DNA from: an uncultured Actinomycetes bacterium
Lineage (GTDB): Bacteria > Actinomycetota > UBA4738 > JBBDTT01
DNA: 64,000 nucleotides
Direction of reading: 5' to 3'
NCBI GenBank assembly: GCA_963742735.1
Contig: CAVUMN010000003.1
Coordinates: 128,001 to 192,000, forward strand
In this document: in pieces, positions 42,190-61,926 of the stretch
Layout: each line of letters starts with the position of its first letter
Numbering within the stretch: the first letter of the stretch is position 1
Program-made: the position numbers and the translations under genes
Notes under the pieces: model-generated
The model's input: only the letters and a program-made list of their open reading frames with translations
Databases searched by the model: none
Told to the model about the DNA's origin: nothing

Positions 42190-42252
42190 CCGCGCCCCCC
42201 CTTGGCCGTCGCCGCTCCCAACCCGGCGGGCGAGACTAGCATTCCGGCCCGG

Positions 42253-44966: not shown

Positions 44967-44970
44967 CCGG

Positions 44971-45762: not shown

Positions 45763-46148
45763 GGGTTCAGCTCCTTCGCGTCGACGTAGCGCTGCACGAA
45801 CGTGCCGCGGCCCACCGTGCCCTTCGGTCCGCGAACCTCGACCTCGGCCACGCACTGCTCCTCGTCGGCGAACGTGCACCGGGCGAGGATGGCCAGGCGG
45901 TCGCCGGGGTGGGCCGCCCGCAGATGGGTCGCCTCGATTCGGTACCCGACGGCGTCCTCACCCTCGGGCATGTGACGGTCGACGAGCAGCCGCCCGGCCT
46001 CCTCCATGTGACGGACCATCCAGGACGTCCCGTACCGCCGGCTCATGACCCGGTCGAACAGGACGGCGACCATGTCCTCGGTCACCTCGACCTCGTGGGA
46101 GGCCTCCTCGCCCTGGGCCGGACGCCCCGTGCTTCGCCGCTCGGACAC
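45759..46148 (-). CDS. Hot-dog fold thioesterase (fluoroacetyl-CoA thioesterase-like)
   Basis: YGT..M...ME.A and VG..I...HL.A...GD patterns. Confidence 0.7.
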   Translation of the reverse strand: MSERRSTGRPAQGEEASHEVEVTEDMVAVLFDRVMSRRYGTSWMVRHMEEAGRLLVDRHMPEGEDAVGYRIEATHLRAAHPGDRLAILARCTFADEEQCVAEVEVRGPKGTVGRGTFVQRYVDAKELNP

Positions 46149-46169
46149 GGCGGCGATTCTTCCACACGG

Positions 46170-46955
46170 CTACGCGGTGCTCCGGCGGCGAGCCTCCCAC
46201 TCCGAGGCGCCGAGGAAGACGGCGCCGCCGACCAGCGCGACGAGGCCCCAGGTGTCGCCGGCGCTGCCCGCGTAGTTCGGGAACACCACCGAGGCCAGGC
46301 CGAGGACCATCGCCGCCAGTCCCGCGCAGCGCGCCGGGACGAGCCAGCCAGGCATGCGCAACGAGGCGAGGAGCCCGACCAGCGCGAGCGTGATGGCCAA
46401 CGCCGCCATCTGGGCCCAGTGGTGCTCGTCCACGTGCGAGTCCCCCTCCACGCCCAGACGCTGGAGCTCGGCCATGCTCAGGGCGTAGGCGGTCAGGGGG
46501 ACGGCGGCCGCGACGGCGAGCGCCGCCAGGATCGGGCTCGGCCGGCGCTCCGGCCGCACGAACCGAGCGCGGAAGGCCGGGCCGCCGATCGCCAGGAGCG
46601 TCCCCACGGCCACCGCGCCCGGCAGAAAGCCGATGACGAGCCACACGGGGTCGGCCGCGAGCGCCGCGGCGACCAGGCCGCCCAGAGACGCCAGCGCCAC
46701 CTGATACAGCGGCGCGACCTGCCTGCGGGCGGCCACCGCGAACAGCGGCACCGCGAGCAGGATCCCGACGAGGATCCCGCCCCCCAGGTCGTGGACCCGG
46801 TGGACCAGCCGCTCGCCGCCCTCGAACCACCCAAGGATCAGGGCGGGGAAGCCGAACAAGGCGAGGCCGAACAGCACGCCGACCACGACGGCGATCAGGC
46901 GAAACGCCCTCGGTCGCGTGATCTGGTCTCCGGTGCTCTCCTCGGTGGCGGCCAC
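46170..46955 (-). CDS. Hypothetical integral membrane protein
   Basis: About eight TM segments; HRVHD and HVDEHHW His clusters; GAGG RBS. Confidence 0.7.
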   Translation of the reverse strand: MAATEESTGDQITRPRAFRLIAVVVGVLFGLALFGFPALILGWFEGGERLVHRVHDLGGGILVGILLAVPLFAVAARRQVAPLYQVALASLGGLVAAALAADPVWLVIGFLPGAVAVGTLLAIGGPAFRARFVRPERRPSPILAALAVAAAVPLTAYALSMAELQRLGVEGDSHVDEHHWAQMAALAITLALVGLLASLRMPGWLVPARCAGLAAMVLGLASVVFPNYAGSAGDTWGLVALVGGAVFLGASEWEARRRSTA

Positions 46956-46967
46956 GCGTGCCTCCTC

Positions 46968-48245
46968 TCAGCCGATGACTCGGCAGACCTCGATGGGCTC
47001 GGATCGCCCCTTCACCTGGCGCGGGCCCACCGGCTCGGCGGTGACGCCGGGCGCCCGCGCGACGGTGGACGCGGACGCCAGGACCTCGCCGCCGGCCGCT
47101 TCGGACTCCAGGCGCTGGGCGACGTTCACCGCGTCGCCCAGGACGGTGTACGCGAGCCGGCCGCCGCCGCCGACCGTGCCCGCGACCACCGTGCCGGTGT
47201 TGACGCCGATGCCGACGCCGAGGGGCGGCTTGCCCTCGCGGACATCCTCCGCGTTCAGCTCCGACTGGCGGGCCTGCATGGCCAGCGCGCAGCGCAGGGC
47301 CCGCTCGGGGTGGTCGGGGAGCGGGTCCGGCGCACCGAACACGGCCATCACGGCGTCTCCGCTGAACTTGTCCAGGGTGCCACCGTGGTCCAGGACGACC
47401 TCGGCCATCGCGGTCAGGTGGCGGGCGATGACCGTGGCCAACTCGCGCGCCGGCAGCTCCTCGGAAAGCGTCGTGAATCCCCGGATGTCGGAGAAGAGGA
47501 TCGTCGCCTCGACCTCCTCCTGTTCCCCCAGCCCCTCGGCCGAGGCGAGCCGGTCGGCCACCTGTGAGGGAACGAACGACCGCAGGCTGCGAGTGGACGT
47601 CTCCCGGTCGACGACCGCGGAGTGGAGGCGCTTGAGCTCGTCGACGGCCACGGCGGCGCCGCGTCCGACCTCGCCCGCGAGCCGCTCGAAAAGCTCCGTG
47701 ACCCGGCGGTCGATCGCCTCCTGGGTCGTGCCCAGCCGTTCCGCCATCTCGGCGTAGCCCAGGCCCTGTGCCATCAGGTCGAGCACCTCGCGGTCGGCGT
47801 CGCCGCGGTCCTCGCGCCCGGACAGCCGCTCGGCGATCACCGGGTCGATGGCCGTGCCCCCGGCGGCCACCTCGCGGATGGCCCGCACCAGCTCGTCGCC
47901 CTCGGCCACCCGCTCCTTCAGCAGATAGGCCAGCCCGGACTCGCCCCCGCCCAGCAACGCGAGGGCGTACGCCTCGTCGTCGTGGGCGGACAGGACCACC
48001 ACGCCCGTGCCGGGGTGCCGCCGGCGGATCTCGTGGGCGGCCTCGATCCCCTCGAGCTGGAAGTTCGGGGGCATCTTGATGTCGGTCACCACCACGTCCG
48101 GAAGCTCGGCGTCCGCAACCTCCAGGAGCGAGGGCGCGTCGGCGGCCACGCCGACCACGGTGACCCCGTCGGACGCGTCCAGGAGTGCGCGCACGCCCTC
48201 GCGGACCAACACGTTGTCCTCGCCCAGCACCACCCGGATCGTCAC
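46968..48245 (-). CDS. Response regulator-adenylate cyclase fusion (REC - LuxR-like HTH - class III cyclase)
   Basis: GEDNVLVREG...TDIKMPP receiver; EVLDLMAQGLG HTH-like segment; LFSDIRGFT, DKFSGDA and YTVLGDAVNVAQRL cyclase motifs. Confidence 0.88.
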   Translation of the reverse strand: MTIRVVLGEDNVLVREGVRALLDASDGVTVVGVAADAPSLLEVADAELPDVVVTDIKMPPNFQLEGIEAAHEIRRRHPGTGVVVLSAHDDEAYALALLGGGESGLAYLLKERVAEGDELVRAIREVAAGGTAIDPVIAERLSGREDRGDADREVLDLMAQGLGYAEMAERLGTTQEAIDRRVTELFERLAGEVGRGAAVAVDELKRLHSAVVDRETSTRSLRSFVPSQVADRLASAEGLGEQEEVEATILFSDIRGFTTLSEELPARELATVIARHLTAMAEVVLDHGGTLDKFSGDAVMAVFGAPDPLPDHPERALRCALAMQARQSELNAEDVREGKPPLGVGIGVNTGTVVAGTVGGGGRLAYTVLGDAVNVAQRLESEAAGGEVLASASTVARAPGVTAEPVGPRQVKGRSEPIEVCRVIG

Positions 48246-48268
48246 TGGCTCACCTGTAGCATCCCTCC

Positions 48269-48946
48269 ATGGCCCGCCTCCGCGTCGTCTTCGCCGAGGA
48301 CAACTATCTCGTACGCGAGGGAACCGCGGCCCTGCTCGCGGAGGTCGGCGACGTCGAGATCGTCGCCGCGGTGGACGACCTCCCCTCGCTCCTCGAGGCC
48401 GTCGCGGAGCATCGGCCCGACGCGGTGCTCACCGACATCCGCATGCCGCCGACGCATACCTCCGAGGGGATCGACGCCGCCCGGCAGATCCGCGCGGAGT
48501 ATCCGGAGACCGGCGTCGTCGTCCTGTCGCAGTTCGCGGAGGACGCCTACGCCTACGACCTGCTGAAGGGCGGCGCCTCCGGCCTCGGGTACCTGCTCAA
48601 GGAGCGGGTCGCCGACGTCGACGAGCTCGTGCGCGCGCTCGGCGAGGTCGCGCGGGGCGGCTCCGTGCTCGATCCGAAGGTGGTCGAGGCCCTCGTCTCC
48701 CATCGCGAGCGGCTCGCCGACTCGCCCGTGGCGCAGCTGACCGAGCGCGAGCGCGAGGTCCTCGGCCATATGGCCGAGGGCATGAACAACGCCGCCATCG
48801 CTCGCGCCCTGGTACTGACGGACCGCGCCATCGAGAAGCACATCAACTCGGTGTTCCACAAGCTCGGCCTCTCCGAGGAGCCCGACGTGCACCGCCGGGT
48901 CATGGCCGTCCTCGCGTTCCTCCGCGAGGCGGGTCCGCCGGAGTAG
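48269..48946 (+). CDS. NarL/LuxR-family response regulator
   Basis: AEDNYLVREG, TDIRMPP, GYLLKERV, LTEREREVL.HMAEG.NN and IEKHINSVF.KL motifs. Confidence 0.93.
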   Translation: MARLRVVFAEDNYLVREGTAALLAEVGDVEIVAAVDDLPSLLEAVAEHRPDAVLTDIRMPPTHTSEGIDAARQIRAEYPETGVVVLSQFAEDAYAYDLLKGGASGLGYLLKERVADVDELVRALGEVARGGSVLDPKVVEALVSHRERLADSPVAQLTEREREVLGHMAEGMNNAAIARALVLTDRAIEKHINSVFHKLGLSEEPDVHRRVMAVLAFLREAGPPE

Positions 48947-48968
48947 ACGCCCCCCGGCCCCCATCGCC

Positions 48969-49571
48969 TCAGGCACGCGCGCGCCGCCGGGCCACGGCCC
49001 GGACCAAGGCGAGCGCCAGCAGCCCGGTCGCGACGTACACCGGCACCCCCACCAGGACCTGCAGGACCATCTCCGAAAGCGTCGAGTGCGTGTGCACCAC
49101 TCGCGCCGCCACCTCCGGGTCGCGCCCGAAGATGTCCACGGCCAGCTTCCCGAGCGGGGCGTCGCGTCCCACCAGCGTGTCGTGGATGAACGGGCCAGGG
49201 CCGGTCGCGACGCCGAACAGCACGCCCACCGCGCCCACGTACAGCCCCGCCTTCAACGGTCCGGCCTTCAGCCCCGCGCGATTCACCGCCCACAGCGCCG
49301 CCGGCATGATCAGGAACAGCGCCGGCGTGAGCGCGACGAACCCGAGCGAGGAGTCGAAGAACCAGTGCGCCCAGTCGTTGATCGGCGGGCCGGCCTCGCC
49401 TCGGTAGATCGCGTGGAACCAGAACATCACGCCGCCGCCGCCGTAGGCGAGCACCGCCGACGTGACCAGCAGCGCCAGCCAGCCCAGCGGACGCGCGTAG
49501 AACGCCCGGACCCCCCGTACGGCAGCCCTCTTCGTGCGGGCGACCGCGTCTCGTGCCTCGACGGCGGTCAC
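48969..49571 (-). CDS. Hypothetical membrane protein
   Basis: About four TM helices; FWFHAIYRGEAGP...HW; GTG start overlapping the USP stop. Confidence 0.65.
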   Translation of the reverse strand: MTAVEARDAVARTKRAAVRGVRAFYARPLGWLALLVTSAVLAYGGGGVMFWFHAIYRGEAGPPINDWAHWFFDSSLGFVALTPALFLIMPAALWAVNRAGLKAGPLKAGLYVGAVGVLFGVATGPGPFIHDTLVGRDAPLGKLAVDIFGRDPEVAARVVHTHSTLSEMVLQVLVGVPVYVATGLLALALVRAVARRRARA

Positions 49572-49975
49572 TGCGCCGCCCTGGTATCCACGACGTACAC
49601 CGAGCAGGGAGCGTGCTGGACGATGGCGTTCGGGACGCTTCCCAGGAACCACCGCCTCTTGCCGTGCGTCCCCCGGTTGCCGACCACGATCACGTCGGCG
49701 CCCTCGTCCTCGGCCACGTCGCAGATCGTCTCGGCCGGGTCGCCGGCCTCCTCGCGGGTGCGGAGCTTCACGTCGGTGAACCGGGCGGCCAGCGTGGCGA
49801 GATAGCCGTTGGCGTCCGGGACCTTCCCCGGGTCGAACACCTCCCGGGCGTCCAGGGGCGGCTTCACGTACACCACGATCAGCTCCGCGTCCTGGGCCTT
49901 CGACAGCTCCGCCGCCGCCGCGACGGCCAGCTCCGCGGACGCGGAGGTGTCGGTTCCGACCACGATCTTCTGCAT
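49568..49975 (-). CDS. Universal stress protein (UspA family)
   Basis: IVVGTD.S, GDPAETI, IVVGNRG, LGSVPN and APCSVYVV motifs; AAAGGAG RBS. Confidence 0.93.
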   Translation of the reverse strand: MQKIVVGTDTSASAELAVAAAAELSKAQDAELIVVYVKPPLDAREVFDPGKVPDANGYLATLAARFTDVKLRTREEAGDPAETICDVAEDEGADVIVVGNRGTHGKRRWFLGSVPNAIVQHAPCSVYVVDTRAAQ

Positions 49976-49995
49976 GGTGGGGCTCCTTTCGAACG

Positions 49996-50145
49996 TCAGG
50001 GGGTTCGCGACGCCAGGGCTCGCCGCAGGCGGCGGTCGAGGATGGAGGCCGCGATCCACATCGCCGGCCCGAGCACGGCCCGCTCCACCTTTCGGCGTCG
50101 CCGGGACGTGCGCTTCGGGACCGTCTGCCAGCGCCGAGCTCCCAT
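49996..50145 (-). CDS. Small basic protein (49 aa) with one hydrophobic helix
   Basis: Strong AAGGAGG RBS before the ATG; MGARRWQTVPKRTSRRRRKVERAVLGPAMWIAASILDRRLRRALASRTP; co-oriented with the USP gene. Confidence 0.6.
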   Translation of the reverse strand: MGARRWQTVPKRTSRRRRKVERAVLGPAMWIAASILDRRLRRALASRTP

Positions 50146-50343
50146 CGCGTCCTCCTTGGTTTCGATGTGGACACGATGCGAGTCACGAGGCCGGTCACGA
50201 CACCCGGGGGGCACGAGGGATCGGGGAGCCGCTCACCCCGACGGGGAGGGGTGGCACCACCACCTCGGTGAGGGGCGTTCCTCGCTCGAACCGTTCGGCT
50301 CGCACACTTGGGAGGAGGATCGCGAAGTCCGACAATGTGACCC

Positions 50344-52362
50344 ATGGCGATGACTGGGAGGACCGCCAAACGGCTGGCCTGGTCCGGCGTGGCGTGGTTC
50401 GGGCTGATGGGAGCAATCGGGGTCACGCTGAACCTCCTGGACGGCTCGTACTCGCTCGAGGACATCGTGCTGCTCCCCGTGATGTTCGGGGCGTTCGCGT
50501 CGGTCGGCGCGGTCATCGCGTCGCGCCAACCCTCCAACCCGATCGGCTGGCTGTTCGTGTTGATCGCGTTGGGGCCCCCGACGTCGTTCGCGGCCGAGGC
50601 TTACGCCTACCGGGCTCTCATCGGCGACCCGGGCTCCCTCCCCGCCGGTCAGTACGCGGGCTGGGTCTCGAACTGGGCGTGGGGGACCGTGCCGCTTCTC
50701 CTGTTCCTGCTCCTGCTGTTCCCGACCGGGAGGCTTCCCAGCCGGCGGTGGCGACCCGTGGCCTGGGCGATCGGGATCTGGTTCGGGCTCGCGATGATCG
50801 GGTCCATGACCGTGTCGGGGGAGATGGACAACCTCCCGGGGAGCCGGAACCCGTTCGGGATCGAGGCCCTGGAGGGGGTCATCCGTCCCTTCCTCCAGGA
50901 CATCGCCTACGCCGGGTTCTCCGTGGGGGCGCTCCTGGCTGCCTCGTCGCTGATCTTCCGATACCGCCGGGCCCGGGACGAGGAGCGCCGGCAGCTGAGG
51001 CTGTTCACGTATGCGGCGTTCCTCAGCGGGATCCTCCTCACGATCGTGGAGTACGTGCCGGACGGAGTTGGGAGCGTGCTCTTCGCGCTCGTCCTGGCCC
51101 TGCTCACGACCGCGACCGCCGTGTCCATCCTCAAGTTTCGGCTCTATGCGATCGATCTGGTCGTACGCAAGACGCTCGTGTACGGAGTCCTCGCCGCCCT
51201 CGTTACGGGCCTCTACCTGCTCCTGGTCGTGGCCGTCCCGGCGGCGATCCTCGGCACGAGCGCGGATGGATCCAGCGTCCTCATCATTCTCGGCACGGCG
51301 GTGCTCGCGCTCCTCCTGCTTCCCCTGCGCCGCCGGATGGCGCACCTTGCGAACCGGCTCGTGTACGGGAAGCGGGCGACGCCCTACGAGGTCCTGTCGG
51401 AGTTCGCCGGCCGCGTCGGCGGGTCGTACGGGGTCGAGGACGTTCTGCCGCGGATGGCCCGGGTCCTCGCGGAGGGGACGGGCGCCGAGCGAGCCGAGGT
51501 GCTGCTGCGGTCCGAGGGAGGCCTTCGCCCGGCGGCGGTCTGGCCCGCCGACGCGGAGCCGTTGGAGGTCCGTGACCTGGTCGTGCCCGTCGTTCACCAG
51601 GGCGAGGACCTCGGCGCGCTGGCCGTCACCAAGCCGCGCGGGGAGCCGTTGACGCCGGCAGAGGAGAAGCTCGTCCGCGACCTGGCCGCGCAGGCGGGAC
51701 TGGTCCTTCGCAACGTGGGGCTCTTCGAGGACCTCCGGGCCTCGCGGGTCCGCCTGGTCGAGGCGCAGGACGCCGAGCGCCGCCGGCTGGAACGCGACAT
51801 CCACGACGGCGCCCAGCAGCACCTGGTGTCGTTGATGGTCCGGCTGCGCCTGGCCGAGAGCCTCATCGCCAAGGATCCCGCGAAGGCCACGGCCGCAGTG
51901 GCCGAGGCGAAGGATCAGGCGAACGACGCCCTGGAGACGCTGCGCGATCTGGCCAGGGGCATCTATCCGCCCTTGCTCGCGGACCAGGGCCTGCCCGCGG
52001 CGCTCGAGGCCGCGGCCCGCAAGGCGCCACTCCCCGTCGACGTCCGGCCGGACGGCGTGGGTCGGTACCCCCAGGCCGCCGAGGCCGCGGTTTACTTCTG
52101 CGTGCTGGAGGCTCTCCAGAACGTCACGAAGTACGCCGAGGCCAGCCGAGCCGCCGTGCGCCTGTCGAGCGAGCCCGGCGCGCTTCGCTTCGAGGTCACC
52201 GACGACGGGCGGGGCTTCGACCTCTCGGCGGTCGCGCGCGGGTCCGGGACCCAGAACATGGCCGACCGGCTCGAGGCCCTCGGCGGTTCGCTGGAGATCC
52301 GCAGCGCCCCGGGAGAGGGGACCACGGTGACGGGCCGCGTCCCGACAGGGTTGGCCCAATGA
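50344..52362 (+). CDS. Multi-TM GAF/HisKA_3 sensor histidine kinase (copy 1)
   Basis: FPTGRLPSRRWR TM region; ERDIHDGAQQ H-box; EALQN, DDGRGF and GSG boxes. Confidence 0.92.
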   Translation: MAMTGRTAKRLAWSGVAWFGLMGAIGVTLNLLDGSYSLEDIVLLPVMFGAFASVGAVIASRQPSNPIGWLFVLIALGPPTSFAAEAYAYRALIGDPGSLPAGQYAGWVSNWAWGTVPLLLFLLLLFPTGRLPSRRWRPVAWAIGIWFGLAMIGSMTVSGEMDNLPGSRNPFGIEALEGVIRPFLQDIAYAGFSVGALLAASSLIFRYRRARDEERRQLRLFTYAAFLSGILLTIVEYVPDGVGSVLFALVLALLTTATAVSILKFRLYAIDLVVRKTLVYGVLAALVTGLYLLLVVAVPAAILGTSADGSSVLIILGTAVLALLLLPLRRRMAHLANRLVYGKRATPYEVLSEFAGRVGGSYGVEDVLPRMARVLAEGTGAERAEVLLRSEGGLRPAAVWPADAEPLEVRDLVVPVVHQGEDLGALAVTKPRGEPLTPAEEKLVRDLAAQAGLVLRNVGLFEDLRASRVRLVEAQDAERRRLERDIHDGAQQHLVSLMVRLRLAESLIAKDPAKATAAVAEAKDQANDALETLRDLARGIYPPLLADQGLPAALEAAARKAPLPVDVRPDGVGRYPQAAEAAVYFCVLEALQNVTKYAEASRAAVRLSSEPGALRFEVTDDGRGFDLSAVARGSGTQNMADRLEALGGSLEIRSAPGEGTTVTGRVPTGLAQ

Positions 52363-54389
52363 CGCAGAAGGTCGCCGCCCGGCTCGCCTGGGGTCTGTGG
52401 GGCCTCACCCTGGCGATCTCGGCCGCCGCTCTCGTGGCGTGGGTGCTCTCGCTCGACACGCCGACGCAGGCCTACGGGTTCCGGGGGGTGGCCCTCCTGC
52501 ACGCCATGGCCTTCGCGACGGCGGGGGCTCTCATCGCGTCGCGCAGGTCGACGCATCCGCTGGGCTGGATCTTCTGTGCGGTCGGAGCCCTGATCGCCGT
52601 CCAGGAGCTCGGCTACGAGTACGCGGTGTACGCCCTCGAGCATGCTGCCGTCGCCGAGCTGGCCCGGGTGGGTGCCTGGATCGTGAACTGGATCTGGGTG
52701 GTGTGGATCTTCGGGGTCGGTATGTTCGGGCTCCTGCTGTACCCGGACGGACGCCTTCCCTCTCGCCGTTGGCGGCCCGTCGCCTGGTTCGACGGGGTCG
52801 CGATCGTAATGCTCGGCGTGACCTCGGCGTTCAAACAGGGAACGCTCGACAACGTCCGTGAGTACACGAACCCGTTCGGGTTCCTTCGGGGCACCACGTT
52901 CGAGGTGCTCGATACCCTGGGCATCCTCCTGGCGATGACCGGGATCGTCCTGTCCGTCGCCTCGATCGTCGTGCGGATGCGGCGGGCTCGCCCGGAGGAG
53001 CGCCTGCAGCTTCGGTGGTTCCTCCTCGCCGGCGCCGTCCTGGTAGTCGGTCTGGGTACGAACGTCTTCGAGAACGTCCTGTCGGACAAGGTCATCGGAT
53101 CCTCCGTCCTCGCCGCGCTCGCGCTGTTCCCGGTGGCTCTCGGCATCGGGATTCTCAAGTACCGGGCGTTCGACCTGGACGTCGTCATCAGCAAGGCCGT
53201 CGTCTACGGCATCCTGCTGGTGATCATCACGCTCGACTACCTGGCCATCGTGGTGGGCATCGGGACGCTCGTCGGCGACCGTGCCAGCCCCGTCCTCACC
53301 GCGGCCGCGGCGGCGATCGCGGCGCTGTCGTTCCAGCCGATCAACCGCCGGCTCACTCGGTTCGCGAACCGGTTGGTCTACGGCAAGCGGGCGACCCCGT
53401 ACGAGGTGCTCTCGGAGTTCTCCGAGCGCGTCGGCACCGCGTACTCGACCGAGGACGTCCTGCCCCGGATGGCCCGGCTGATCGTCGAGGGCACGGGCGC
53501 GACGCGCGGCGACGTGTGGCTTCGCATCGGCGACACCTGGCGGCTCGAGGCTTCGTGGCCGGCCGAAGCCCCGACGCTCTCCGCTCCCGACGACGATGAG
53601 GGTCGCCCGTTCGAGGTCCGGCACCAGGGCCAGACGCTCGGCGCCCTCAGCCTGGTCAAGCCGGCGAACGATCCGGTCACCCCGGCCGAGGAACGTCTCC
53701 TGGGCGACCTGGCCGCGCAGGCCGGACTCGTCTTGCGCAACGTGCGGCTGCTGGAGGATCTCCGCGCTTCGCGCCGCCGGCTGGTGACCGCCCAGAACGA
53801 CGAGCGGCGCCGGTTGGAGCGCGACATCCATGACGGCGCACAGCAGCACCTCGTCGCGCTGATGGTGAAGCTTCGGGTTCTGGAGGCCCTCGCGAAGAAA
53901 AATCCCGCCAGGGTGGCCGGCGCGGTCGAGGAGCTGAAGGGGCAGGCCCAGGACGCCCTGGAGACACTGCGCGACCTGGCCCGCGGGATCTATCCGCCCG
54001 TCCTCGCCGACCGGGGTTTGGCCGCGGCCCTCGAGGCGCAGACCCGTGGCGGGCCGGTGCCGGTGGCGATCAGTCCGGACGGCGTCGGCCGCCTGCCGCA
54101 GGAGGTGGAGGCCGCCGTGTACTTCTGTGTCCTGGAGGCGTTGCAGAACGTCGCGAAGTATGCCGGGGCGTCCGGGGTCGATCTGACGCTCCGTCAGATC
54201 GACGGCCAGGTCGAGTTCGAGGTCCGCGACGACGGCCGGGGGTTCGACCCAGACACCACGCCGCGGGGGTCCGGGCTGCAGAACATGGCCGACCGCCTGG
54301 AGGCGCTGGGGGGCACGCTCGTGGTCACCAGCGCGCCGGGGGGCGGGACCACGGTGGTCGGCCGTGTCCCCGCGGAGGCGCTGCGATGA
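52359..54389 (+). CDS. Multi-TM GAF/HisKA_3 sensor histidine kinase (copy 2)
   Basis: Same architecture with intact H, N, D and G boxes; ATGA overlap. Confidence 0.92.
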   Translation: MTQKVAARLAWGLWGLTLAISAAALVAWVLSLDTPTQAYGFRGVALLHAMAFATAGALIASRRSTHPLGWIFCAVGALIAVQELGYEYAVYALEHAAVAELARVGAWIVNWIWVVWIFGVGMFGLLLYPDGRLPSRRWRPVAWFDGVAIVMLGVTSAFKQGTLDNVREYTNPFGFLRGTTFEVLDTLGILLAMTGIVLSVASIVVRMRRARPEERLQLRWFLLAGAVLVVGLGTNVFENVLSDKVIGSSVLAALALFPVALGIGILKYRAFDLDVVISKAVVYGILLVIITLDYLAIVVGIGTLVGDRASPVLTAAAAAIAALSFQPINRRLTRFANRLVYGKRATPYEVLSEFSERVGTAYSTEDVLPRMARLIVEGTGATRGDVWLRIGDTWRLEASWPAEAPTLSAPDDDEGRPFEVRHQGQTLGALSLVKPANDPVTPAEERLLGDLAAQAGLVLRNVRLLEDLRASRRRLVTAQNDERRRLERDIHDGAQQHLVALMVKLRVLEALAKKNPARVAGAVEELKGQAQDALETLRDLARGIYPPVLADRGLAAALEAQTRGGPVPVAISPDGVGRLPQEVEAAVYFCVLEALQNVAKYAGASGVDLTLRQIDGQVEFEVRDDGRGFDPDTTPRGSGLQNMADRLEALGGTLVVTSAPGGGTTVVGRVPAEALR

Positions 54390-56509
54390 ACCCGCGACGG
54401 ATCGCGTGGAGCGCATGGACTCTGTCGCTGGCCATCGTGGCCGGTTTCGTCGCGCTGGCGTTCGTGAACAGCCGAACCGACATCGGCCTAGGGTTCATCG
54501 TGGCCCTCGCCACGATGGGCTACGCGACGACGGGCGCGCTCATCGTCTCGCGGCAGCCCAGGAACACGGTCGGATGGCTGTTCCTCCTGATCGGGCTCTG
54601 CGTTGGCTTCTCCGGTTTCGCCGAGAACTACTCGCAGCGGGCACTTGACCTGGGAGGTCCTGAGGCGATCCCGCTGGTGCCCCTCGTCGCGTGGCTCGGA
54701 GCGAACTTCGCGCTCGTCGTCGGCTTCGGCTCCATCCCCCTCGTGCTCCTCGTGTTCCCCGACGGCCGTCTGCCTTCCCGCAGATGGCGGGTGGTCGCGG
54801 TCGCGATGGTGCTCGCGCTCGCTGCGGGGCTCGCCGGGCTGGCGCTCAGTCCGAACCCGCTGGGTGGCGAGGCAAAGATCCCGAACCCCACGGCGATCCC
54901 CGGCTTGAAGGAGCTGGCATCGCTCCTGATGACGATCGGTGGGTTCGGCTCGGTCATCTCCGGCGCGCTGTGCGTGGCCGCCCTCGTCGTGCGATTTCGG
55001 CGCTCGCGCGGCGCCGAGCGACAGCAGCTTCGATGGCTGGCCTACTCCGCCGGAGCCGCGGTGGTGCTGTTCCTCTCGACCGTTACCGTCGGCGTCCTCG
55101 ACGAAGGTCGCCTGAGCGACGCGATCTTCTTCGCGTTCCTCACGCTGTTCGCGGTCGGGATCCCGGTGTCGTGCGGGATCGCGATCCTGAAGCACGGGCT
55201 GTTCGGGATCGACGTCGTGGTCAACAAAGCGCTCGTCTACGGGTCGCTCGCCGCGTTCATCACCGCGGTGTACGTCGCGATCGTCGTGGGCATCGGCACG
55301 GTGATCGGCACCGGCGACGAGCCGAACCTGGCCCTGTCGATCGCCGCGACCGCCGTGGTCGCGATCGCTTTCCAGCCCGTCCGGACCCGTGTTCAGCGAG
55401 TCGCGAACCGTCTGGTGTATGGCGAGCGGGCGTCGCCCTACGAGGTCCTGTCCGGGTTCGCAGCGAGCGTCGGTGGCTCCTACGACGTCGAGGATGTCCT
55501 TCCCCGCATGGCCCGCGTGGTGGCCGAGGGGACGGGCGCGGCCCGAGCTGAGGTCTGGCTGACCGTCGGAGACGCGCTCGTCGCGGGGGCCTCGTGGCCA
55601 GCCGACCCGCAACCGCGCGACCCCCTTCCGCTGCCAGACGACGGAGGTGCGCCGGAGGTTCCGGGAGCCGACCGAGCGGTGGCCGTCCGGGCGCAGGGCC
55701 AGCTCCTGGGTGCGCTCTCGGTGACGAAACCACCGGGCGAGGCCCTCCGTCCCGCCGAGGCAGCCCTGCTGGACCACCTCGCCGCCCAGGCCGGCCTGGT
55801 CGTTCGCAGCGCCCGCCTGGCCGCGGAGCTCCGGGCCCGGCTTGAGGAGCTCTCCCGCCATGCGGAGGCGCTGCGGCTCTCACGGCAGCGGATCGTGGCC
55901 GCGGAGGACGGGGAGCGCCGGCGGCTGGAGCGGGACATCCACGACGGCGCGCAGCAGCACCTGGTGGCGCTGGCGGTGAAGATTCGCCTCGCCCGTCAGC
56001 TCGCCGGCAAGGACCCGGAGCGGGCCCGGGGACTGATCGCCGACCTTCGCCGGGACGCCGTGTCGGCCTCGGACACGCTCGCCGGTCTGGCGACGGGGAT
56101 CTACCCGCCGCTGCTCTCGGAGGGAGGCCTGGTCCGGGCCCTGCGGGCGAGCGCCGAGGGCATGCCGTTCGAGGTCCACGTCGAGCCGGACGGGGTGGGC
56201 CGCTACGCCGAGGACGTGGAGGCCGCCGTGTACTTCTCGATCCTCGAGGCGCTGCAGAACGCGGCGAAGTACGCGGAGGCCTCTCGCGTGGATCTGACCC
56301 TCCGTCAGGTGGACGGGACGATCGAGTTCGAGGTGTCAGACGATGGCAGCGGCTTCGACCCCGAAGCCACGACGCACGGCTCGGGCTCGCGGAACATGGC
56401 GGATCGACTGGAGGCGCTCGGGGGCGTCGTCTCGATCGACAGCGGGCCGGGGCGCGGGACGCGCGTGAGCGGCATGGTCCCCGCCACGCCGGTGGAGGTG
56501 GCGGGATGA
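54386..56509 (+). CDS. Multi-TM GAF/HisKA_3 sensor histidine kinase (copy 3)
   Basis: Same architecture with intact boxes; ATGA overlap. Confidence 0.92.
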   Translation: MNPRRIAWSAWTLSLAIVAGFVALAFVNSRTDIGLGFIVALATMGYATTGALIVSRQPRNTVGWLFLLIGLCVGFSGFAENYSQRALDLGGPEAIPLVPLVAWLGANFALVVGFGSIPLVLLVFPDGRLPSRRWRVVAVAMVLALAAGLAGLALSPNPLGGEAKIPNPTAIPGLKELASLLMTIGGFGSVISGALCVAALVVRFRRSRGAERQQLRWLAYSAGAAVVLFLSTVTVGVLDEGRLSDAIFFAFLTLFAVGIPVSCGIAILKHGLFGIDVVVNKALVYGSLAAFITAVYVAIVVGIGTVIGTGDEPNLALSIAATAVVAIAFQPVRTRVQRVANRLVYGERASPYEVLSGFAASVGGSYDVEDVLPRMARVVAEGTGAARAEVWLTVGDALVAGASWPADPQPRDPLPLPDDGGAPEVPGADRAVAVRAQGQLLGALSVTKPPGEALRPAEAALLDHLAAQAGLVVRSARLAAELRARLEELSRHAEALRLSRQRIVAAEDGERRRLERDIHDGAQQHLVALAVKIRLARQLAGKDPERARGLIADLRRDAVSASDTLAGLATGIYPPLLSEGGLVRALRASAEGMPFEVHVEPDGVGRYAEDVEAAVYFSILEALQNAAKYAEASRVDLTLRQVDGTIEFEVSDDGSGFDPEATTHGSGSRNMADRLEALGGVVSIDSGPGRGTRVSGMVPATPVEVAG

Positions 56510-58557
56510 GCGCGCGTGCTCGTTCGGTGGCCGCGTGGTCTGCCCTCGGGCTGTGCATTGCATTCGCCGTCGCCGGCGCCGTCGTCGCCGCGGCGTTCAC
56601 GCCGACGCCCTTTGAGTGGTCCGGGATCGGCTTCATCATCGGGGTCATGGGGGCGCCGACGTTCGGGGCCCTGATTTTGTCCCGCGCCCCCAACCGGGTG
56701 GGGTGGCTCCTGATCGTCGTCGGGCTGGGCGGCACCCTGGCCATCGTGCTGGGGTCGATGGCCGACTCGAACGTCGAGGCCGGGTGGATGGTGTGGGTGG
56801 CCTGGGTGGCCAACTGGGTGTGGCCCTTCTCCCTGGGGAGCCTGATCCTGATCCTGCAGCTCTTCCCGGACGGACGCCCCCTGACCCCGCGGTGGCGGTG
56901 GTTGGTCGGGCTTACCCTGCTCGCGGTCGGCCTCCTGGTGATCGGAAGCGCGTTCGGCCCTGGTCGGCTGGGCGACTACGAGCGCTACACGAACCCCGTG
57001 GGCCTGGAGGCGCTCCGCGGGAGTTGGGTGTCGGCGGATGTGAACATCGGGTGGGCCCTGATCATCCCCTCGGTGCTCGGGTCGGCGGCGTCGTTGGTGG
57101 TGCGGTACCGGCGAAGCCGCGGCGAGCGGAGGCAGCAGCTCAAGTGGCTGTCCTACGCCGCGGTGCTGTTCGGCCTCGGGTGGGTGGGCGTGGTGGTCTC
57201 CTACGAGGCGTTCGGCAGCGACCTGGTCGGTCAGATCCTGTTCGCGTCCGGAATGATCGCCGTCCCGGTCGCGGTGGGGATCGCGATCCTCAAGTACCGG
57301 CTGTACGACATCGACCTCGTCATCAACAAGACGATGGTCTACGGGGCGCTCGCCGCGTTCATCACGGCGGTGTACGTCGCGATCGTGGTCGGCGTCGGCG
57401 CGTTGATCGGCAGTGGCGACGAGCCGAACCTGGCCCTGTCGATCGCGGCCACCGCCGTCGTCGCGCTCTCCTTCCAGCCCGTCCGCGAGCGCGTGCAGCG
57501 GGTCGCCAACCGGTTGGTCTACGGCGAGCGCGCCACGCCCTACCAGGTGATGGCGGGGTTCTCCGACCGTGTGGCGAACGCGATCTCAGTCGAGGACGTG
57601 CTGCCGCGGATGGCGGAGACCGCCGCCCGCGGTGTCGGCGCGGCCGCCACCCGTGTGTCGGTGTTCCTGTCCGAGGGGGATCGCCACGCGGTGTGGCCGG
57701 AGGACGCCGAGGCGTCTCACGGCTTCGATCGGACGATCACCGTGCGGGACCGTGGAGAGGCCGTGGGGGAGATCGCCCTGCGCAAGCCGGCCGGCGAGGC
57801 GTTCACATCCTCCGACGAGCGGCTGCTCGAGGACCTCGCGGCGCAGGCAGGCCTCGCCCTGCGCAACGTGCGCCTCACGGCCGAGCTCGAGCGTCGGGTC
57901 GAGGAGACCTCGGCGCTCGCCGGGGATCTGGCCGAGTCGCGTCGTCGGATCCTGTCGGCCCGGGACGAGGAGCGACGCCGCCTCGAGCGCCGCGTTCACG
58001 GTGGCCCTCAGCGCCGCCTCGCGGTCATGAACGACCGGCTGCGGGAGATCGACGAGGCCCTCGATGACCCGGCGCGCGCCACGGAGCTCCTCGAGGCCCT
58101 CGGCATGGAGACCGCCGGGACCCTGGACGTCCTCAGGGAGCTGGCCCGGGGGATCTTCCCGCCGCTGCTGTCCGACCAGGGCCTCGCGCCCGCCCTCGAG
58201 GCGCAGGCGCGGAAGCTCGATCGCGCCGTCGAGATCTCGCCGGAGCTCGTTGGCGTCCGCCTGTCGGCGGAGGCCGAGGCCGCCGCGTACTTCTGCTCCG
58301 CGCTTCTGCTCGAGGAGGCGAACCCCGCCGCGGTGCTGTCGGCTGCGCTCGAAGGAGGGTCCGTGGTCCTGTCGCTCCCCGGCGGCGTCTCCGAGGAAAC
58401 CCTCCGGCGTGTTCGCGACCGGGCGGAAGCCCTCGGGGGTTCGCTGGAGACGGGGGCGGCGGTGCAGGCCAGGATCCCGGTCGGCGATCAGCCGGAGCTG
58501 GCGGCGGCCCAGGCCTCCTCGAGCCGGTCCGGCTCGAACTCCGACTTGGGGATGTAG
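56506..58557 (+). CDS. Multi-TM GAF/HisKA_3 kinase-like protein (copy 4) with a degenerate ATPase domain
   Basis: H-box altered to ERRVHGGPQRRL; no EALQN or DDGxGF; ATGA overlap. Confidence 0.85.
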   Translation: MSARARSVAAWSALGLCIAFAVAGAVVAAAFTPTPFEWSGIGFIIGVMGAPTFGALILSRAPNRVGWLLIVVGLGGTLAIVLGSMADSNVEAGWMVWVAWVANWVWPFSLGSLILILQLFPDGRPLTPRWRWLVGLTLLAVGLLVIGSAFGPGRLGDYERYTNPVGLEALRGSWVSADVNIGWALIIPSVLGSAASLVVRYRRSRGERRQQLKWLSYAAVLFGLGWVGVVVSYEAFGSDLVGQILFASGMIAVPVAVGIAILKYRLYDIDLVINKTMVYGALAAFITAVYVAIVVGVGALIGSGDEPNLALSIAATAVVALSFQPVRERVQRVANRLVYGERATPYQVMAGFSDRVANAISVEDVLPRMAETAARGVGAAATRVSVFLSEGDRHAVWPEDAEASHGFDRTITVRDRGEAVGEIALRKPAGEAFTSSDERLLEDLAAQAGLALRNVRLTAELERRVEETSALAGDLAESRRRILSARDEERRRLERRVHGGPQRRLAVMNDRLREIDEALDDPARATELLEALGMETAGTLDVLRELARGIFPPLLSDQGLAPALEAQARKLDRAVEISPELVGVRLSAEAEAAAYFCSALLLEEANPAAVLSAALEGGSVVLSLPGGVSEETLRRVRDRAEALGGSLETGAAVQARIPVGDQPELAAAQASSSRSGSNSDLGM

Positions 58558-58862
58558 GCGGCGGCGCCGGCGGCCTCGGCCTTCGGCGCGTACTCGTCGT
58601 ACTCGTAGGTCGACAGAAGCAGGACCACGACCCGTCCGGGCGCCGCGCCCAGGATCTGCCGGGTGGCCTCAAGCCCGTCGATGCCGGGAAGGTTCACGTC
58701 CATCAGGACGAGGTCGGGGTTCAGCCGGGCCGCGGCCTCCACCGAGGCCTCCCCGGTCTCCGCCTCCCCGACGACCTCGAAGCCGTCGGTAAGCTCGACC
58801 ACGGTCCTGGCGGCCTCCCGGAAGGGGGCCTGGTCGTCCACGATGAGCACATTGATCGCCAT
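58488..58862 (-). CDS. Single-domain response regulator (receiver only)
   Basis: VLIVDDQ, LVLMDVNLPGIDG, LLST and AYIPK motifs; no output domain. Confidence 0.9.
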   Translation of the reverse strand: MAINVLIVDDQAPFREAARTVVELTDGFEVVGEAETGEASVEAAARLNPDLVLMDVNLPGIDGLEATRQILGAAPGRVVVLLLSTYEYDEYAPKAEAAGAAAYIPKSEFEPDRLEEAWAAASSG

Positions 58863-58960
58863 CCTGCGGGGAATCCTCGCCCATCCGGACCGCCCGGGCC
58901 AGGGTGCGCGCACGAGACCTCGAGGTGGTGCCCGCCCCCGGCCCCGGCTACAGTGCGGCG

Positions 58961-59050
58961 ACGGGGGAGTCCGGCGGCACCGGGCTGAGAGGCGGGTACC
59001 ACGCCCGCGACCCTTCGAACCTGATCCGGGTCATGCCGGCGGAGGGAGGC
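58961..59050 (+). ncRNA. TPP (THI-box) riboswitch
   Basis: GGGG...GGGCTGAGA...GACCCTTCGAACCTGATCCGGGTCATGCCGGCGGAGGGAG consensus; its 3' end contains the SD of the next gene; TACAGT -10 box at 58949-58954. Confidence 0.93.
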
Positions 59051-59053
59051 GCG

Positions 59054-60466
59054 ATGTCCACGGTCACCGAGCGGCTCGAGCGAGAGGCGCCGGAATGGGG
59101 CGTCCGCCCGTCCCCTCCCGAGGTCCGGCGACTGGGCGGCCGGGACTTCGCCGTCCTGTGGGGCGATCTGTCGATCGGCCTGCTGGTCGCACTCACCGGC
59201 GCGTTCCTGGTCCCCGGCCTCGGGCTGCCGACGGCGCTGCTGGCGATCGTCGTGGGCTCGGTGCTGGGCTGCGCGCTCCTGGGGGCGGTCGGCGTCGCCG
59301 GGGCCCGCGAGGGTGTTCCCGGCATGGTCCTGTTCCGTCCGCTCCTCGGCATCCGCGGCTCGTACCTGCCGACGCTGTTCAACGTGGTCCAGCTCCTGGG
59401 TTGGACGGCGTTCGAGCTGTGGGCGATGGCGGTCGTCGCCAGCCGCGTGGGAGGCGACCTTCTGGGCGTCGACTCGTACGCGTTTTGGCTGGTCGCGATC
59501 TCCGTCATCTGCCTAGCCCTGGCCCTCGGTGGGCCCGTGCTCGTGGTCCGCCGGTGGATGGAGCGGTTCGGGGCGTGGGTGGTGGCGGCCGTCGGGCTGT
59601 GGATCACGATCGGGCTGTTCATCCAGGGCGACGTCTCGGGGATCTGGTCGGCGCCGGGGGCCGGCGGCTATCCGGGCTTCTGGCAGGGCGTGGACCTGGT
59701 GATCGTCATGCCGATCTCGTGGCTGCCCCTGGTGGCGGACTACAGCCGCTTCGCGCGCCCGGGGGTCTCGAGCTTCGCCGGGACCTTCGGCGGCTACTTC
59801 GTGGGCAACGTGTGGTTCTACGCGCTCGGGGCCCTGCTGGTCCTTGCCGGCGGGCTCGACCCGCTGGCGGGGCCGGCCGGGCTGTCGGCCTCCATCGCCG
59901 CGCTGGCCGGGGGCGGGGCCGTGCTGATCGCGCTGCTGGTGGGGGAGACCGACCAGGCGTTCGCCGACATCTACTCGACGGCCGTCTCCGCGCAGAACGT
60001 GGCGCCGAAGCTCCCACAGCGCCCCACGATCGTCGTGGTCGGGCTCGTCGGATTCGGCATCGCCCTGGCCCTGGGGAACGACCCCGTGGGCGCCCTGGGC
60101 TCCTACGAGCAGTTCCTGTTCCTGCTGGGGTCGGTGTTCGTGCCGGTGTACGGCGCCTTCGTGGCCGACTACTTCTTCCTGCGACGGCGGGGGTTCGCCG
60201 AGGCCGACCTGTTTCCCGACCGAGGCGGCCGGTTCTGGTACGTGGGCGGGTTCAACTTCCGAACGATCGTGCCGTGGGTTGCCGGCTTCCTCGTCTACCA
60301 CTGGACCGGCCCATTGGCACCGGCGTGGTGGATCAACGGATTCAAGGCTGCGGTCGAGGCGGTCGGCCTGCCCTATCCGCTGTTCGACGGCGCGCTCGGG
60401 GCGAGCATCCCGGCGTTCGCCGTGGCGCTCCTCGCCACCCTGCTGCTGCGGGGACGCGGTCGATAG
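59054..60466 (+). CDS. cytX: NCS1/cytosine-permease family transporter, probable thiamine-precursor (HMP) importer CytX
   Basis: N..QL.GWT.FE, MPISWLPLVADYSRF and FADIYS motifs; lies under the TPP riboswitch. Confidence 0.85.
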   Translation: MSTVTERLEREAPEWGVRPSPPEVRRLGGRDFAVLWGDLSIGLLVALTGAFLVPGLGLPTALLAIVVGSVLGCALLGAVGVAGAREGVPGMVLFRPLLGIRGSYLPTLFNVVQLLGWTAFELWAMAVVASRVGGDLLGVDSYAFWLVAISVICLALALGGPVLVVRRWMERFGAWVVAAVGLWITIGLFIQGDVSGIWSAPGAGGYPGFWQGVDLVIVMPISWLPLVADYSRFARPGVSSFAGTFGGYFVGNVWFYALGALLVLAGGLDPLAGPAGLSASIAALAGGGAVLIALLVGETDQAFADIYSTAVSAQNVAPKLPQRPTIVVVGLVGFGIALALGNDPVGALGSYEQFLFLLGSVFVPVYGAFVADYFFLRRRGFAEADLFPDRGGRFWYVGGFNFRTIVPWVAGFLVYHWTGPLAPAWWINGFKAAVEAVGLPYPLFDGALGASIPAFAVALLATLLLRGRGR

Positions 60467-60476
60467 GCTCGGCGTC

Positions 60477-61493: not shown

Positions 61494-61495
61494 GC

Positions 61496-61864: not shown

Positions 61865-61926
61865 GGCGCCAGAGCGTAGTGGACGGATAGACTCGGAGCT
61901 CCCCACGAGTCCACGAGGAGGCAACG

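Follow-up and report, generated by a model that had tools for sequence, protein, structure and literature searches.

The window, a 64,000-nucleotide stretch of DNA from an uncultured soil actinobacterium, carries a signalling cluster composed of a tandem array of four genes (K1-K4) and three receiver proteins. The genes and features of this cluster are as follows, with the basis of each assignment in brackets.

46170..46955, minus strand: M2, a 261-aa membrane protein (GC3 frame, hydropathy)
46968..48245, minus strand: cyclase-regulator, predicted REC, diverged LuxR-type HTH, linker and class III nucleotidyl cyclase (Pfam, NCBIfam, PDB)
48246..48268, no strand: divergent intergenic spacer, 23 nt (sequence)
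48269..48946, plus strand: NarL/FixJ-type response regulator, REC and GerE HTH, 225 aa (Pfam)
48969..49520 (end approximate), minus strand: small membrane protein, ~183 aa (GC3, hydropathy)
49568..49978, minus strand: universal stress protein (USP), 136 aa from M28 (Pfam Usp)
50344..52362, plus strand: K1, 672 aa, KN, short GAF-like module, HisKA_3 and HATPase_c (Pfam, motifs)
52359..54389, plus strand: K2, 676 aa, architecture as K1 (Pfam, motifs)
54386..56509, plus strand: K3, 707 aa, architecture as K1 (Pfam, motifs)
56506..58557, plus strand: K4, 683 aa, putative pseudokinase (motif table, no kinase-domain match)
58488..58862 (ORF to 58913), minus strand: stand-alone receiver (bare REC), 124 aa from M18 (Response_reg)

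The four tandem open reading frames reported by the first-pass annotation are all real, with plus-strand frames backed by GC3, and the ATGA overlaps are seen at all three junctions (52359, 54386 and 56506). A hydropathy scan also agrees with its multi-TM description, giving 9-10 hydrophobic segments per N-terminus. K1-K3 qualify as HisKA_3-type sensor histidine kinases, with both domains above the Pfam cut-offs (24 bits for HisKA_3, PF07730; 26.4 bits for HATPase_c, PF02518) at 56.1/40.3, 56.4/49.1 and 43.2/42.0 bits, respectively, and all catalytic motifs are present in each. The GAF domain attributed to all four is recovered in K1 (27.0 bits) and K3 (25.5 bits), while K2 has no match and K4 falls below the Pfam cut-off; in the AF2 model of K1 (mean pLDDT 86.9), this GAF-like module is truncated to two helices and four strands. 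K2, K3 and K4 are 52, 48 and 41% identical to K1, and because the genome holds no other full-length paralogues (seven further matches cover the kinase core alone), an array of the four is beyond chance. In related arrays, 60 of 83 adjacent kinase pairs share the 4-nt overlap. The full set of His, DxxxQ, N, G1 and G2 motifs, in which DxxxQ, read by eye, is presumably the phosphatase motif, occurs in 173 of 190 unique full-length kinases. The DHp of K1 is 74, 59 and 52% identical to those of K2, K3 and K4, compared with at most 36% for other kinases of the genome, and the DHp consensus is near-identical between 138 array kinases and 38 cyclase-linked kinases. On their motifs, K1-K3 are predicted to be the active kinases of this genome.

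The N-terminus of K1-K4 is a 10-helix membrane domain, KN, according to AF2 and hydropathy (AF2 model with pLDDT 88.9 and pTM 0.81), whose membrane topology is read from helix count and charge bias only. Residues 1-350 yielded nothing meaningful in Pfam at E<=10 and no match in NCBIfam, and a PDB sequence search gave no match ahead of residue 393. Foldseek of KN against the PDB returned 0 matches at E<=1e-3, with query-normalised TM-scores of at most 0.36, and the nearest named Atlas cluster, HisKA_7TM, scored 0.83, under the lead threshold. The domain is abundant nonetheless (37,826 representatives at E<=1e-3), and tandem amplification is common among KN genes, including those without a kinase domain. 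KN is only 33-43% identical to its counterparts in relatives of other genera, and positions at least 80% conserved number 31 in the inner half and 3 in the outer half. As modelled, KN is an undescribed sensor family, with a predicted cytoplasmic face that is conserved and an outer half that is hypervariable.

Three receivers with different outputs had been proposed at the locus, and all are found in place, as REC with cyclase, REC with GerE, and REC alone. The cyclase-regulator matches Response_reg at 60.7 bits and Guanylate_cyc at 90.9 bits; its acceptor is D54 in TDIKMPP, a putative HTH spans ~150-190 and the cyclase 243-416. Its earlier label as a receiver-cyclase was correct for both end domains and missed the probable NarL-like HTH between them. 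This protein has no GerE match at E<=0.01, and its alignment to the NCBIfam NarL model covers 8-210 of 216 (E 5.5e-17) with a score far short of the model's cut-off. NarL (1a04) and DevR (3c3w) from the PDB align to residues 3-207, through the HTH, and CyaB and other cyclases in the PDB align to residues 242-424. Atlas clusters of Actinomycetota proteins with Response_reg and Guanylate_cyc exist; in a related cluster GerE is found in 99% of members, while in the window lineage the HTH has drifted below the Pfam GerE threshold. The cyclase has a PF00211 domain and the metal, substrate and transition-state residues of class III, in the motifs FSDIRGF, KFSGDAVMAVFG and YTVLGDAVNVAQR, the residue roles being assigned by eye on what we take to be established motif knowledge. 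Among 87 orthologues, conservation of the acceptor and catalytic motifs reaches 95% or more, and that of the HTH is only partial. By sequence, the protein is best described as a class III cyclase joined to a whole NarL-type regulator, REC and diverged HTH; its product would be cAMP, with predicted adenine specificity.

The NarL regulator scores above both cut-offs (Response_reg 59.9 bits, GerE 46 bits), which places it among NarL/FixJ regulators, and its motifs are conserved in 79 orthologues. The bare REC matches Response_reg at 80.2 bits and holds DD, D72, S/T and K123, with motifs conserved in 46 orthologues. Because orthologue matches begin at residues 17-20, its true start is likely M18 at 58862, which is also the end coordinate in the first-pass annotation. 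In the 87, 79 and 46 orthologues of the cyclase-regulator, NarL regulator and bare REC, respectively, the acceptor Asp is at least 95% conserved, in keeping with functional receivers. The cyclase-regulator and NarL regulator have REC domains that are mutual closest paralogues (58% identity), other RECs of the genome reaching at most 41%. The spacer between these two genes holds TAGCAT, ending 7 nt before the NarL regulator ATG, and possibly serving as the -10 box of a leaderless transcript; in 85 loci the spacer measures 20-88 nt, and a TA(C/G)(C/G)AT-like word is conserved beside the regulator start.

The NarL regulator does not directly bracket the kinases as had been described, since the genes of the small membrane protein and USP, both on the minus strand, separate it from the array. 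The small membrane protein, with four hydrophobic segments, no Pfam or NCBIfam match and homologues in L013 and L091 only, is a lineage-specific insertion between the NarL regulator and USP. The USP gene, divergent from the array, encodes a protein matching Pfam Usp at 111.9 bits; its best match to a PDB USP has E 1.5e-9, and the cAMP-binding mycobacterial USPs (5ahw, 1tq8) match no better than others. M2, encoded 12 nt downstream of the cyclase-regulator gene, has seven predicted hydrophobic segments and a weak resemblance to TgpA_N (19.3 bits against a cut-off of 30), and 28 of 70 related loci have an M2 homologue next after the cyclase gene. At the other end, the bare REC gene is convergent with the array.

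The order of cyclase-regulator, NarL regulator, USP, kinase array and bare REC recurs across an order of uncultured Actinomycetota, contrary to the prospect, raised in the first-pass annotation, that the arrangement might not be conserved. The NarL regulator lies next to the cyclase-regulator, in divergent orientation, in all 71 loci with at least 900 nt upstream, and USP comes next after the NarL regulator in 56 of 69. In 37 loci, a bare REC (at least 55% identity, within a 10-kb flank) closes the array at its far end; the number of intervening kinases is 0, 1, 2, 3 and 4 in 8, 8, 8, 8 and 5 of these loci, respectively, and five-kinase arrays occur in L003, L004 and L006. Single-kinase loci keep all three receivers, e.g. 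L020/L026. In comparisons with relatives from other genera, sequence identity is far higher for the receivers than for the KN sensors, at 65-73% for the cyclase, 68-82% for the NarL regulator HTH and 70-80% for the bare REC. A co-directional downstream kinase is linked to the cyclase-regulator in 45 of 70 loci, with 9 of 10 such kinases in a separate clade of the kinase tree; it is absent in the window, as in the 25 of 70 loci that keep the cyclase-regulator without it.

K4, although counted as a kinase in the first-pass annotation, is not one by sequence, because neither HisKA_3 nor HATPase_c is matched at E<=0.01 and the alignment shows, among the ATP-binding boxes, a changed N box and the loss of G1 and part of G2; it was rejected as a HisKA_3 kinase on these grounds. 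Its H-box reads VHGGPQRRL, and the D and Q of DxxxQ are gone. K4 still has the KN sensor, the GAF-like module and DHp-like helices, and its final 70 nt overlap the convergent bare REC gene. The orthologue in the same-genus genome G001 is 79% identical and carries the same deletion, with Asn in place of the phospho-acceptor His that is present in the window K4. The frame is open across 683 codons in both species. With a dN/dS of 0.21 as a whole (0.13 for the DHp, 0.36 for what is left of the CA domain), K4 is under purifying selection.

In trees from full-length columns, all 15 degenerate kinases fall in one clade (SH-aLRT 97), most members of which are without the phospho-acceptor His. When sensor and GAF columns alone are used, 12 of them, K4 included, still form a clade (99), and three split off once the kinase-core columns are left out, so that two origins are possible. 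The DHp consensus of 14 degenerate kinases loses conservation just after the His position and keeps helix 2. The K4 lineage is found in several families of the order, and a degenerate kinase is not universal: among 37 bounded arrays a clear case is seen in L044 only, and the degenerate kinase of L077 is probably a frameshift artefact. These sequence comparisons identify K4 as part of a putative old pseudokinase lineage, which is mostly without the His and has intact ATP-binding boxes, the ATP site being gone too in the genus of the window. K4 would have retained its sensor and dimerisation helices and lost catalysis and the surface that docks the regulator. Its most likely role is to modulate an active neighbour, probably K3, via hetero-oligomerisation or scaffolding.

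We propose, with a probability of roughly 60%, that the locus is a conserved module encoding a branched multikinase two-component network. The phosphorelay suggested in the first-pass annotation is unsupported. Hpt (PF01627) had no match in the 88.9%-complete genome, and the control search recovered matches in 9 of 14 named genomes; the scanned ORFs likewise contained no Hpt-like domain, which argues for a branched network instead. As inputs, this network would have membrane kinases with KN sensors, encoded in an array of variable size whose genes are translationally coupled. K1-K3 are likely to phosphorylate one shared small set of receivers, because the DHp helices of the array kinases are not diversified, and such convergence fits the varying kinase number with fixed receivers, the DHp consensus and the REC paralogy. 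The outputs would comprise a NarL-type transcription factor, a cyclase-regulator whose cAMP synthesis would be turned on when phosphorylation drives it to dimerise, and a bare REC that may compete for phosphate or modulate the kinases.

HisKA_3 kinases and NarL regulators usually pair one-to-one, and paralogue insulation is expected to diversify the DHp. Exactly three motif-complete kinases and three receivers lie in the window, as would be expected if K1, K2 and K3 each served one receiver in insulated pairs and clustering meant co-regulation only; in other genomes, moreover, a co-directional kinase from a distinct clade accompanies the cyclase-regulator, as expected of a classical cognate pair. 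Such pairing is nevertheless improbable given that array kinases vary from 0 to 5 and receivers stay at three, even next to a single array kinase, and that the DHp consensus is the same across positional classes. The linked kinase, present in 45 of 70 loci and forming its own clade, does imply that the ancestral wiring may have been two sub-systems rather than one hub, and its absence here means that the cyclase-regulator might go unphosphorylated. The array could then act on the NarL regulator and bare REC only, leaving a cyclase-regulator without its cognate kinase to be constitutive or controlled otherwise, by small phosphodonors or its own HTH/linker; that M2 directly follows the cyclase gene and that the genome has four KN kinases only are in keeping with this. 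We consider it unlikely, however, since the REC acceptor pocket is intact and matches the columns conserved at 95% or more, this REC is the closest paralogue of that of the NarL regulator, and the protein is retained in the 25 loci that also are without the linked kinase.

It is very improbable that the array is a recent redundant amplification with K4 as a decaying, functionless pseudogene. The lost catalytic motifs of K4, its run of 70 nt into the REC gene and the tendency of KN genes to amplify in tandem even without a kinase domain would all accord with this reading, but the paralogues are only 41-52% identical and have closer orthologues elsewhere (K2 81%, K3 71% and K4 79% in G001), and the open frame of K4 in two species, its dN/dS and its spread over several families point the other way.

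The usual reading of a two-component system is one kinase paired with one regulator, and cAMP signalling is prominent in Actinomycetota. Comparative data from about 100 species-level genomes point to a fixed receiver trio with changeable sensors, and the branched network would provide a natural system for the gain and loss of inputs in multikinase networks. It also offers a natural, long-lived HisKA_3 pseudokinase lineage, a response regulator predicted to couple phosphorylation to cAMP synthesis, and an abundant membrane sensor domain without Pfam, NCBIfam or structural annotation. More speculatively, KN could be a large undescribed class of membrane receptors whose arrays, together with the dead paralogue, form a plug-in sensory hub acting at once on transcription, through the NarL regulator, and on cAMP, through the cyclase-regulator. 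If this tentative idea is true, KN diversifies by tandem duplication, an ancient dead paralogue tunes its neighbours, and two-component signalling is coupled directly to cAMP, with a built-in pseudokinase, in a manner undescribed in any cultured organism.

In the DosS/DosT-DosR (DevRS) system of Mycobacterium tuberculosis, paralogous GAF HisKA_3-type kinases converge on one NarL-type regulator, and USP genes are associated with this dormancy system. The CA and GAF regions of K1 match DevS/DosT chains (E 1.7e-6 and 8e-3), and DevR aligns with residues 3-207 of the cyclase-regulator. DosS and DosT are, however, soluble, with two haem-binding GAF domains each, whereas K1-K4 combine a membrane domain of 10 helices with a single truncated GAF-like module, and the cluster has three receivers, including a cyclase, plus a pseudokinase. 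A DosRST-type system was rejected, because K1-K4, with 10 predicted membrane helices, are not tandem-GAF soluble kinases.

Integration of several kinases onto one output is described for GacS/RetS/LadS of Pseudomonas aeruginosa, one member of which acts by direct kinase-kinase interaction rather than regulator phosphorylation (PMC8498467, PMC5992135). The Pseudomonas kinases are hybrid or unorthodox, use Hpt steps and are encoded by dispersed genes, in contrast to the HisKA_3 kinases of the window, which form a coupled tandem array with no Hpt found and a predicted cAMP output. As for the cyclase-regulator, the available portions of a census of 53 actinobacterial genomes include CHD+LuxR proteins and do not list the order REC+LuxR+CHD (PMC3466318), and no characterised member appeared in the papers returned by literature searches.

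With regard to K4, one account describes DivL of the Caulobacter DivL-DivK-CckA system as a histidine-kinase-like pseudokinase that acts with a single-domain receiver and can do without both its ATPase domain and its phosphorylatable residue (PMC9491836). The likeness drawn here is functional; the bare REC of the cluster is present with or without an array pseudokinase. As a precedent for K4, the same text reports that native ChrS and HrrS of the Corynebacterium glutamicum haem systems form heterodimers and cross-phosphorylate regulators, and that ChrS_CA-fs, a CA-defective HisKA_3-type pseudokinase whose own His is dispensable, enhanced signalling of its paralogue HrrS (PMC9491836). These, like K1-K4, are paralogous actinobacterial membrane kinases, but ChrS_CA-fs is laboratory-evolved and has a different sensor domain, whereas the K4 lineage appears natural and old.

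The gene order seen in the window is shared with its relatives. The synteny check proposed in the first-pass annotation has been run on related genomes, and a cyclase-regulator, a NarL regulator, a universal stress protein (USP), a kinase array and a stand-alone receiver (bare REC) recur there in the same order. The host genome (G000) is 3.08 Mb, 88.9% complete, with a GC content of ~71%, and its close protein relatives all belong to metagenome assemblies of uncultured organisms labelled "Actinomycetota bacterium".

Features of the module and its surroundings (ORF listing, GC3 frame plot, and Pfam and NCBIfam scans; riboswitch from the Rfam scan)
45759-46148, minus strand: thioesterase
46170-46955, minus strand: M2, a 7-segment membrane protein
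46968-48245, minus strand: REC-HTH-cyclase protein (cyclase-regulator)
48269-48946, plus strand: NarL-type regulator
48969-~49520, minus strand: small membrane protein
49568-49978, minus strand: USP
50344-58557, plus strand: kinase array K1 to K4
58488-58862, minus strand: bare REC
58953-59064, plus strand: TPP riboswitch (RF00059, full length, 62.1 bits)

The riboswitch, 5' of a cytosine/purine/thiamine-family permease gene, sets the right-hand edge of the module and, lying outside it, is the sole match in an Rfam scan of 44000-62000. Because it precedes the permease, that gene must start after 59064, not at 58904, and its product is probably a thiamine-precursor transporter. Further on, a second cyclase (60279-61493, plus strand; true start probably near 60474) combines a YCII-related domain (Pfam 33.7 bits) with a class III cyclase domain (64.8 bits) and has a counterpart of 88% identity at the same place in the same-genus genome G001 (L101 6249-6863). 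Used as a tblastn query against G000, the cyclase domain matched 24 segments, which lie on contigs C3 and C4, indicating that many class III cyclases are encoded by this 3-Mb genome. To the left, a 1005-aa ORF (40624-43641, plus strand) carries a pyridine-nucleotide-disulphide oxidoreductase in its C-terminal half (546-992), and its N-terminal ~540 residues have no Pfam match at E<=0.01. A sequencing-run search with the window returned zero RNA runs and a single run of soil DNA, whose word share was 0.17.

The recurrence was established in two samplings. In the first, window domains were mapped by tblastn onto 20 array loci, including L002 from the unpublished genome G031, and the order was cyclase-regulator, divergent NarL regulator, opposite-strand USP, one to five kinases and convergent bare REC. 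Among 41 genomes of this order, 36 match the N-terminal domain of K1, often as tandem runs; five genomes flagged as unpublished count in this tally. The second, independent sampling started from the cyclase-regulator (327 relatives; 80 loci kept, all from uncultured MAGs). The NarL regulator is its divergent neighbour in all 71 loci whose upstream sequence reaches 900 nt or more, and the USP comes next in 56 of 69. In 37 loci the bare REC falls inside the 10-kb flank; of these, 8 have no kinase in between, 8 have one, 8 two, 8 three and 5 four, arrays longer than the flank being impossible to bound in this count. A homologue of M2 lies 3' of the cyclase gene in 28/70 loci. The two locus sets share six contigs, and, the genomes being related, these counts are not independent trials.

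The spacers contain elements of their own. The divergent regulator genes are 20-88 nt apart in 85 related loci and 23 nt apart in the window (48246-48268), and a conserved TAnnnT word stands ~7 nt before the NarL regulator start codon, a position that suggests a leaderless transcript. In the USP-kinase spacers of 25 loci (e.g. L078 and L035), GGAAC...N~16...GTGCTGGCACC(CC) is conserved on the USP-reading strand; this GGAAC...GTGCTGGCACC element, which might be an ECF-sigma-type promoter or leader element, is not present in the window's own USP-kinase spacer. That spacer holds, just upstream of the USP gene, a 49-codon basic ORF (MGARRWQ..., 49996-50145, minus strand) with an AAGGAGG Shine-Dalgarno sequence. 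The USP was considered as a cAMP binder and the idea was dropped, as the mycobacterial USP chains known to bind cAMP (5ahw, 1tq8) do not outscore other USPs.

Four tandem paralogues had been reported in the array, and this is borne out: K1-K4 are 672, 676, 707 and 683 aa long, K2-K4 are 52, 48 and 41% identical to K1, and all junctions (52359, 54386, 56506) are the ATGA overlaps described earlier, a 4-nt overlap being found in 60/83 adjacent kinase pairs overall. They are the only full-length paralogues in G000, where seven further matches cover the kinase core only. The description of all four as HisKA_3 kinases holds for K1-K3, which exceed the Pfam cut-offs for HisKA_3 and HATPase_c, but not for K4, which has neither domain; similarly, a GAF domain passes the cut-off in K1 and K3 but not in K2 or K4, and in the AF2 model this region is a short module, with two helices and four strands. 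Nor does the NarL regulator directly bracket the array, since two opposite-strand genes intervene.

K4 is a degenerate copy, reading VHGGPQRRL at the H-box against IHDGAQQHL in active kinases, with its N box altered, G1 deleted and G2 truncated in the alignment. Among 190 unique full-length kinases (of 206, identical proteins being counted once), 173 contain all of the His, DxxxQ, N, G1 and G2 motifs. Twelve of the other 17 have E, R, S or Q instead of His and keep the N and G1 boxes, L075_382 keeps His and has lost DxxxQ, K4 keeps His and has lost the ATP-binding boxes, and three look like C-terminal frameshift artefacts. K4 might also be read as a dying gene, but this is unlikely. In G001, K3', K4', REC, permease and YCII-cyclase stand in the window's order, K4' is 79% identical to K4 across all 683 residues and shares its CA deletion, and dN/dS between the two is 0.21 for the whole protein, with 0.13 for the DHp and 0.36 for what is left of the CA, so K4 is not an artefact of assembly and not a free-running pseudogene. 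The His of K4 is not conserved, as K4' has Asn at that position. In an unrooted IQ-TREE analysis of 73 full-length kinases (quick, LG+G4), a single clade (SH-aLRT 97) takes in all 15 degenerate proteins; when the columns of the kinase core are left out, 12 of the 15, K4 included, still group together (99) and three fall elsewhere, so that one or two origins are possible on these trees. In 14 degenerate kinases conservation is lost just past the His position, and helix 2 is kept.

The protein first called a receiver-adenylate cyclase does have both of these parts, but it also contains a NarL-like HTH. It aligns to NarL and DevR through the HTH (NCBIfam NarL model; PDB chains), and thus probably represents a whole NarL-type regulator with an added cyclase; GerE occurs in 99% of members of a related Atlas cluster. 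The HTH is partly conserved among its orthologues, whereas that of the NarL regulator is strongly conserved. The cyclase motifs FSDIRGF, KFSGDAVMAVFG and YTVLGDAVNVAQR, which we take to hold the two metal-binding Asp, the Lys/Thr for adenine and the Asn/Arg, are at least 95% conserved among orthologues. All three receivers have the acceptor Asp, acidic pair, Ser/Thr and Lys, also conserved among orthologues.

The N-terminal membrane sensor domain of the kinases (KN) has, over residues 1-350, zero matches in NCBIfam or PDB sequences and, in Pfam at E<=10, only the chance-level matches CNNM, Heliorhodopsin and PelG; a HisKA_7TM identity (an Atlas lead at 0.83) is unsupported by Pfam. The AF2 model, built with 122 homologues, is a confident 10-helix bundle (pLDDT 88.9, pTM 0.81). 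Foldseek against the PDB gave zero matches at E<=1e-3 and query-normalised TM of at most 0.36, and generic helical-bundle (GPCR) matches, at 0.17-0.36 with rmsd 9-19 Å, were rejected. An N-in topology is assumed because the helices are even in number, the loops are rich in Arg and the kinase is cytoplasmic; on that assumption, 31 positions are at least 80% conserved in the cytoplasmic half and loops (mean top-residue frequency 0.54) and 3 in the outer half (0.33).

KN is widespread, its profile matching 112/301 sampled Actinomycetota genomes (a tally with nine unpublished genomes) and, at E<=1e-3, 37,826 representatives, falling to 23,898 at 1e-10 and 9,371 at 1e-30. In other orders, KN is found on its own as well, with no kinase attached (L102 1912-9951, minus strand, in G196; also L103). 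One genome has six or seven tandem KN-only genes of ~410-440 aa with 4-nt overlaps and zero Pfam matches, and one KN-only protein aligns with K1 residues 46-391 at 33% identity. Such kinase-less arrays indicate that tandem amplification is a property of the KN family itself. Fused double-KN forms exist as well, as P0121, P0126, P0127 and others (~1060-1090 aa) each have two KN-matched stretches.

We infer a converging network in which K1-K3 would sense different membrane-associated stimuli via the variable outer half of KN, autophosphorylate and act as phosphodonors for three receivers: the NarL regulator, the bare REC and the cyclase-regulator. Once phosphorylated, the cyclase-regulator would form dimers, which would bring together the two subunits needed for a class III active site. 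The bare REC would serve as a phosphate drain or as a modulator of the kinases, and K4 might tune a neighbour through hetero-oligomerisation. Precedents are RetS-GacS and the laboratory-evolved ChrS pseudokinase with DivL (PMC9491836). The earlier term phosphorelay is not apt, as zero Hpt was found in the 88.9%-complete G000 genome.

Evidence on the wiring comes from the DHp and REC domains. The DHp of K1 is 74, 59 and 52% identical to those of K2-K4 and at most 36% to G000's other kinases, and the DHp consensus is nearly equal through helices 1 and 2 between 138 array and 38 cyclase-linked kinases. The RECs of the NarL regulator and cyclase-regulator share 58% identity, against a maximum of 41% with any further REC in G000; for the bare REC, the highest identity to another REC there is 42%. 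Less probably, the kinases and receivers form insulated one-to-one pairs. It may also be that the cyclase-regulator is orphaned in G000: a kinase lies directly 3' of the cyclase gene in 45/70 loci and is absent there in the window, and of ten cyclase-linked kinases in the first set, nine group in a clade of their own (FastTree support 97).

HisKA_3 kinases, NarL regulators, class III cyclases, USPs, pseudokinases and multikinase networks are all of known kinds. The closest named system is presumably DosS/DosT-DosR, whose defining soluble tandem-GAF haem sensors are, however, absent from the window module. In open-access main texts, zero descriptions were found of the module, of REC-HTH-cyclase regulators or of tandem KN kinases. 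What appears to be new is the conserved gene combination, the natural lineage of pseudokinases, the constant pairing of a NarL regulator with a REC-HTH-cyclase regulator, and the unannotated KN domain.
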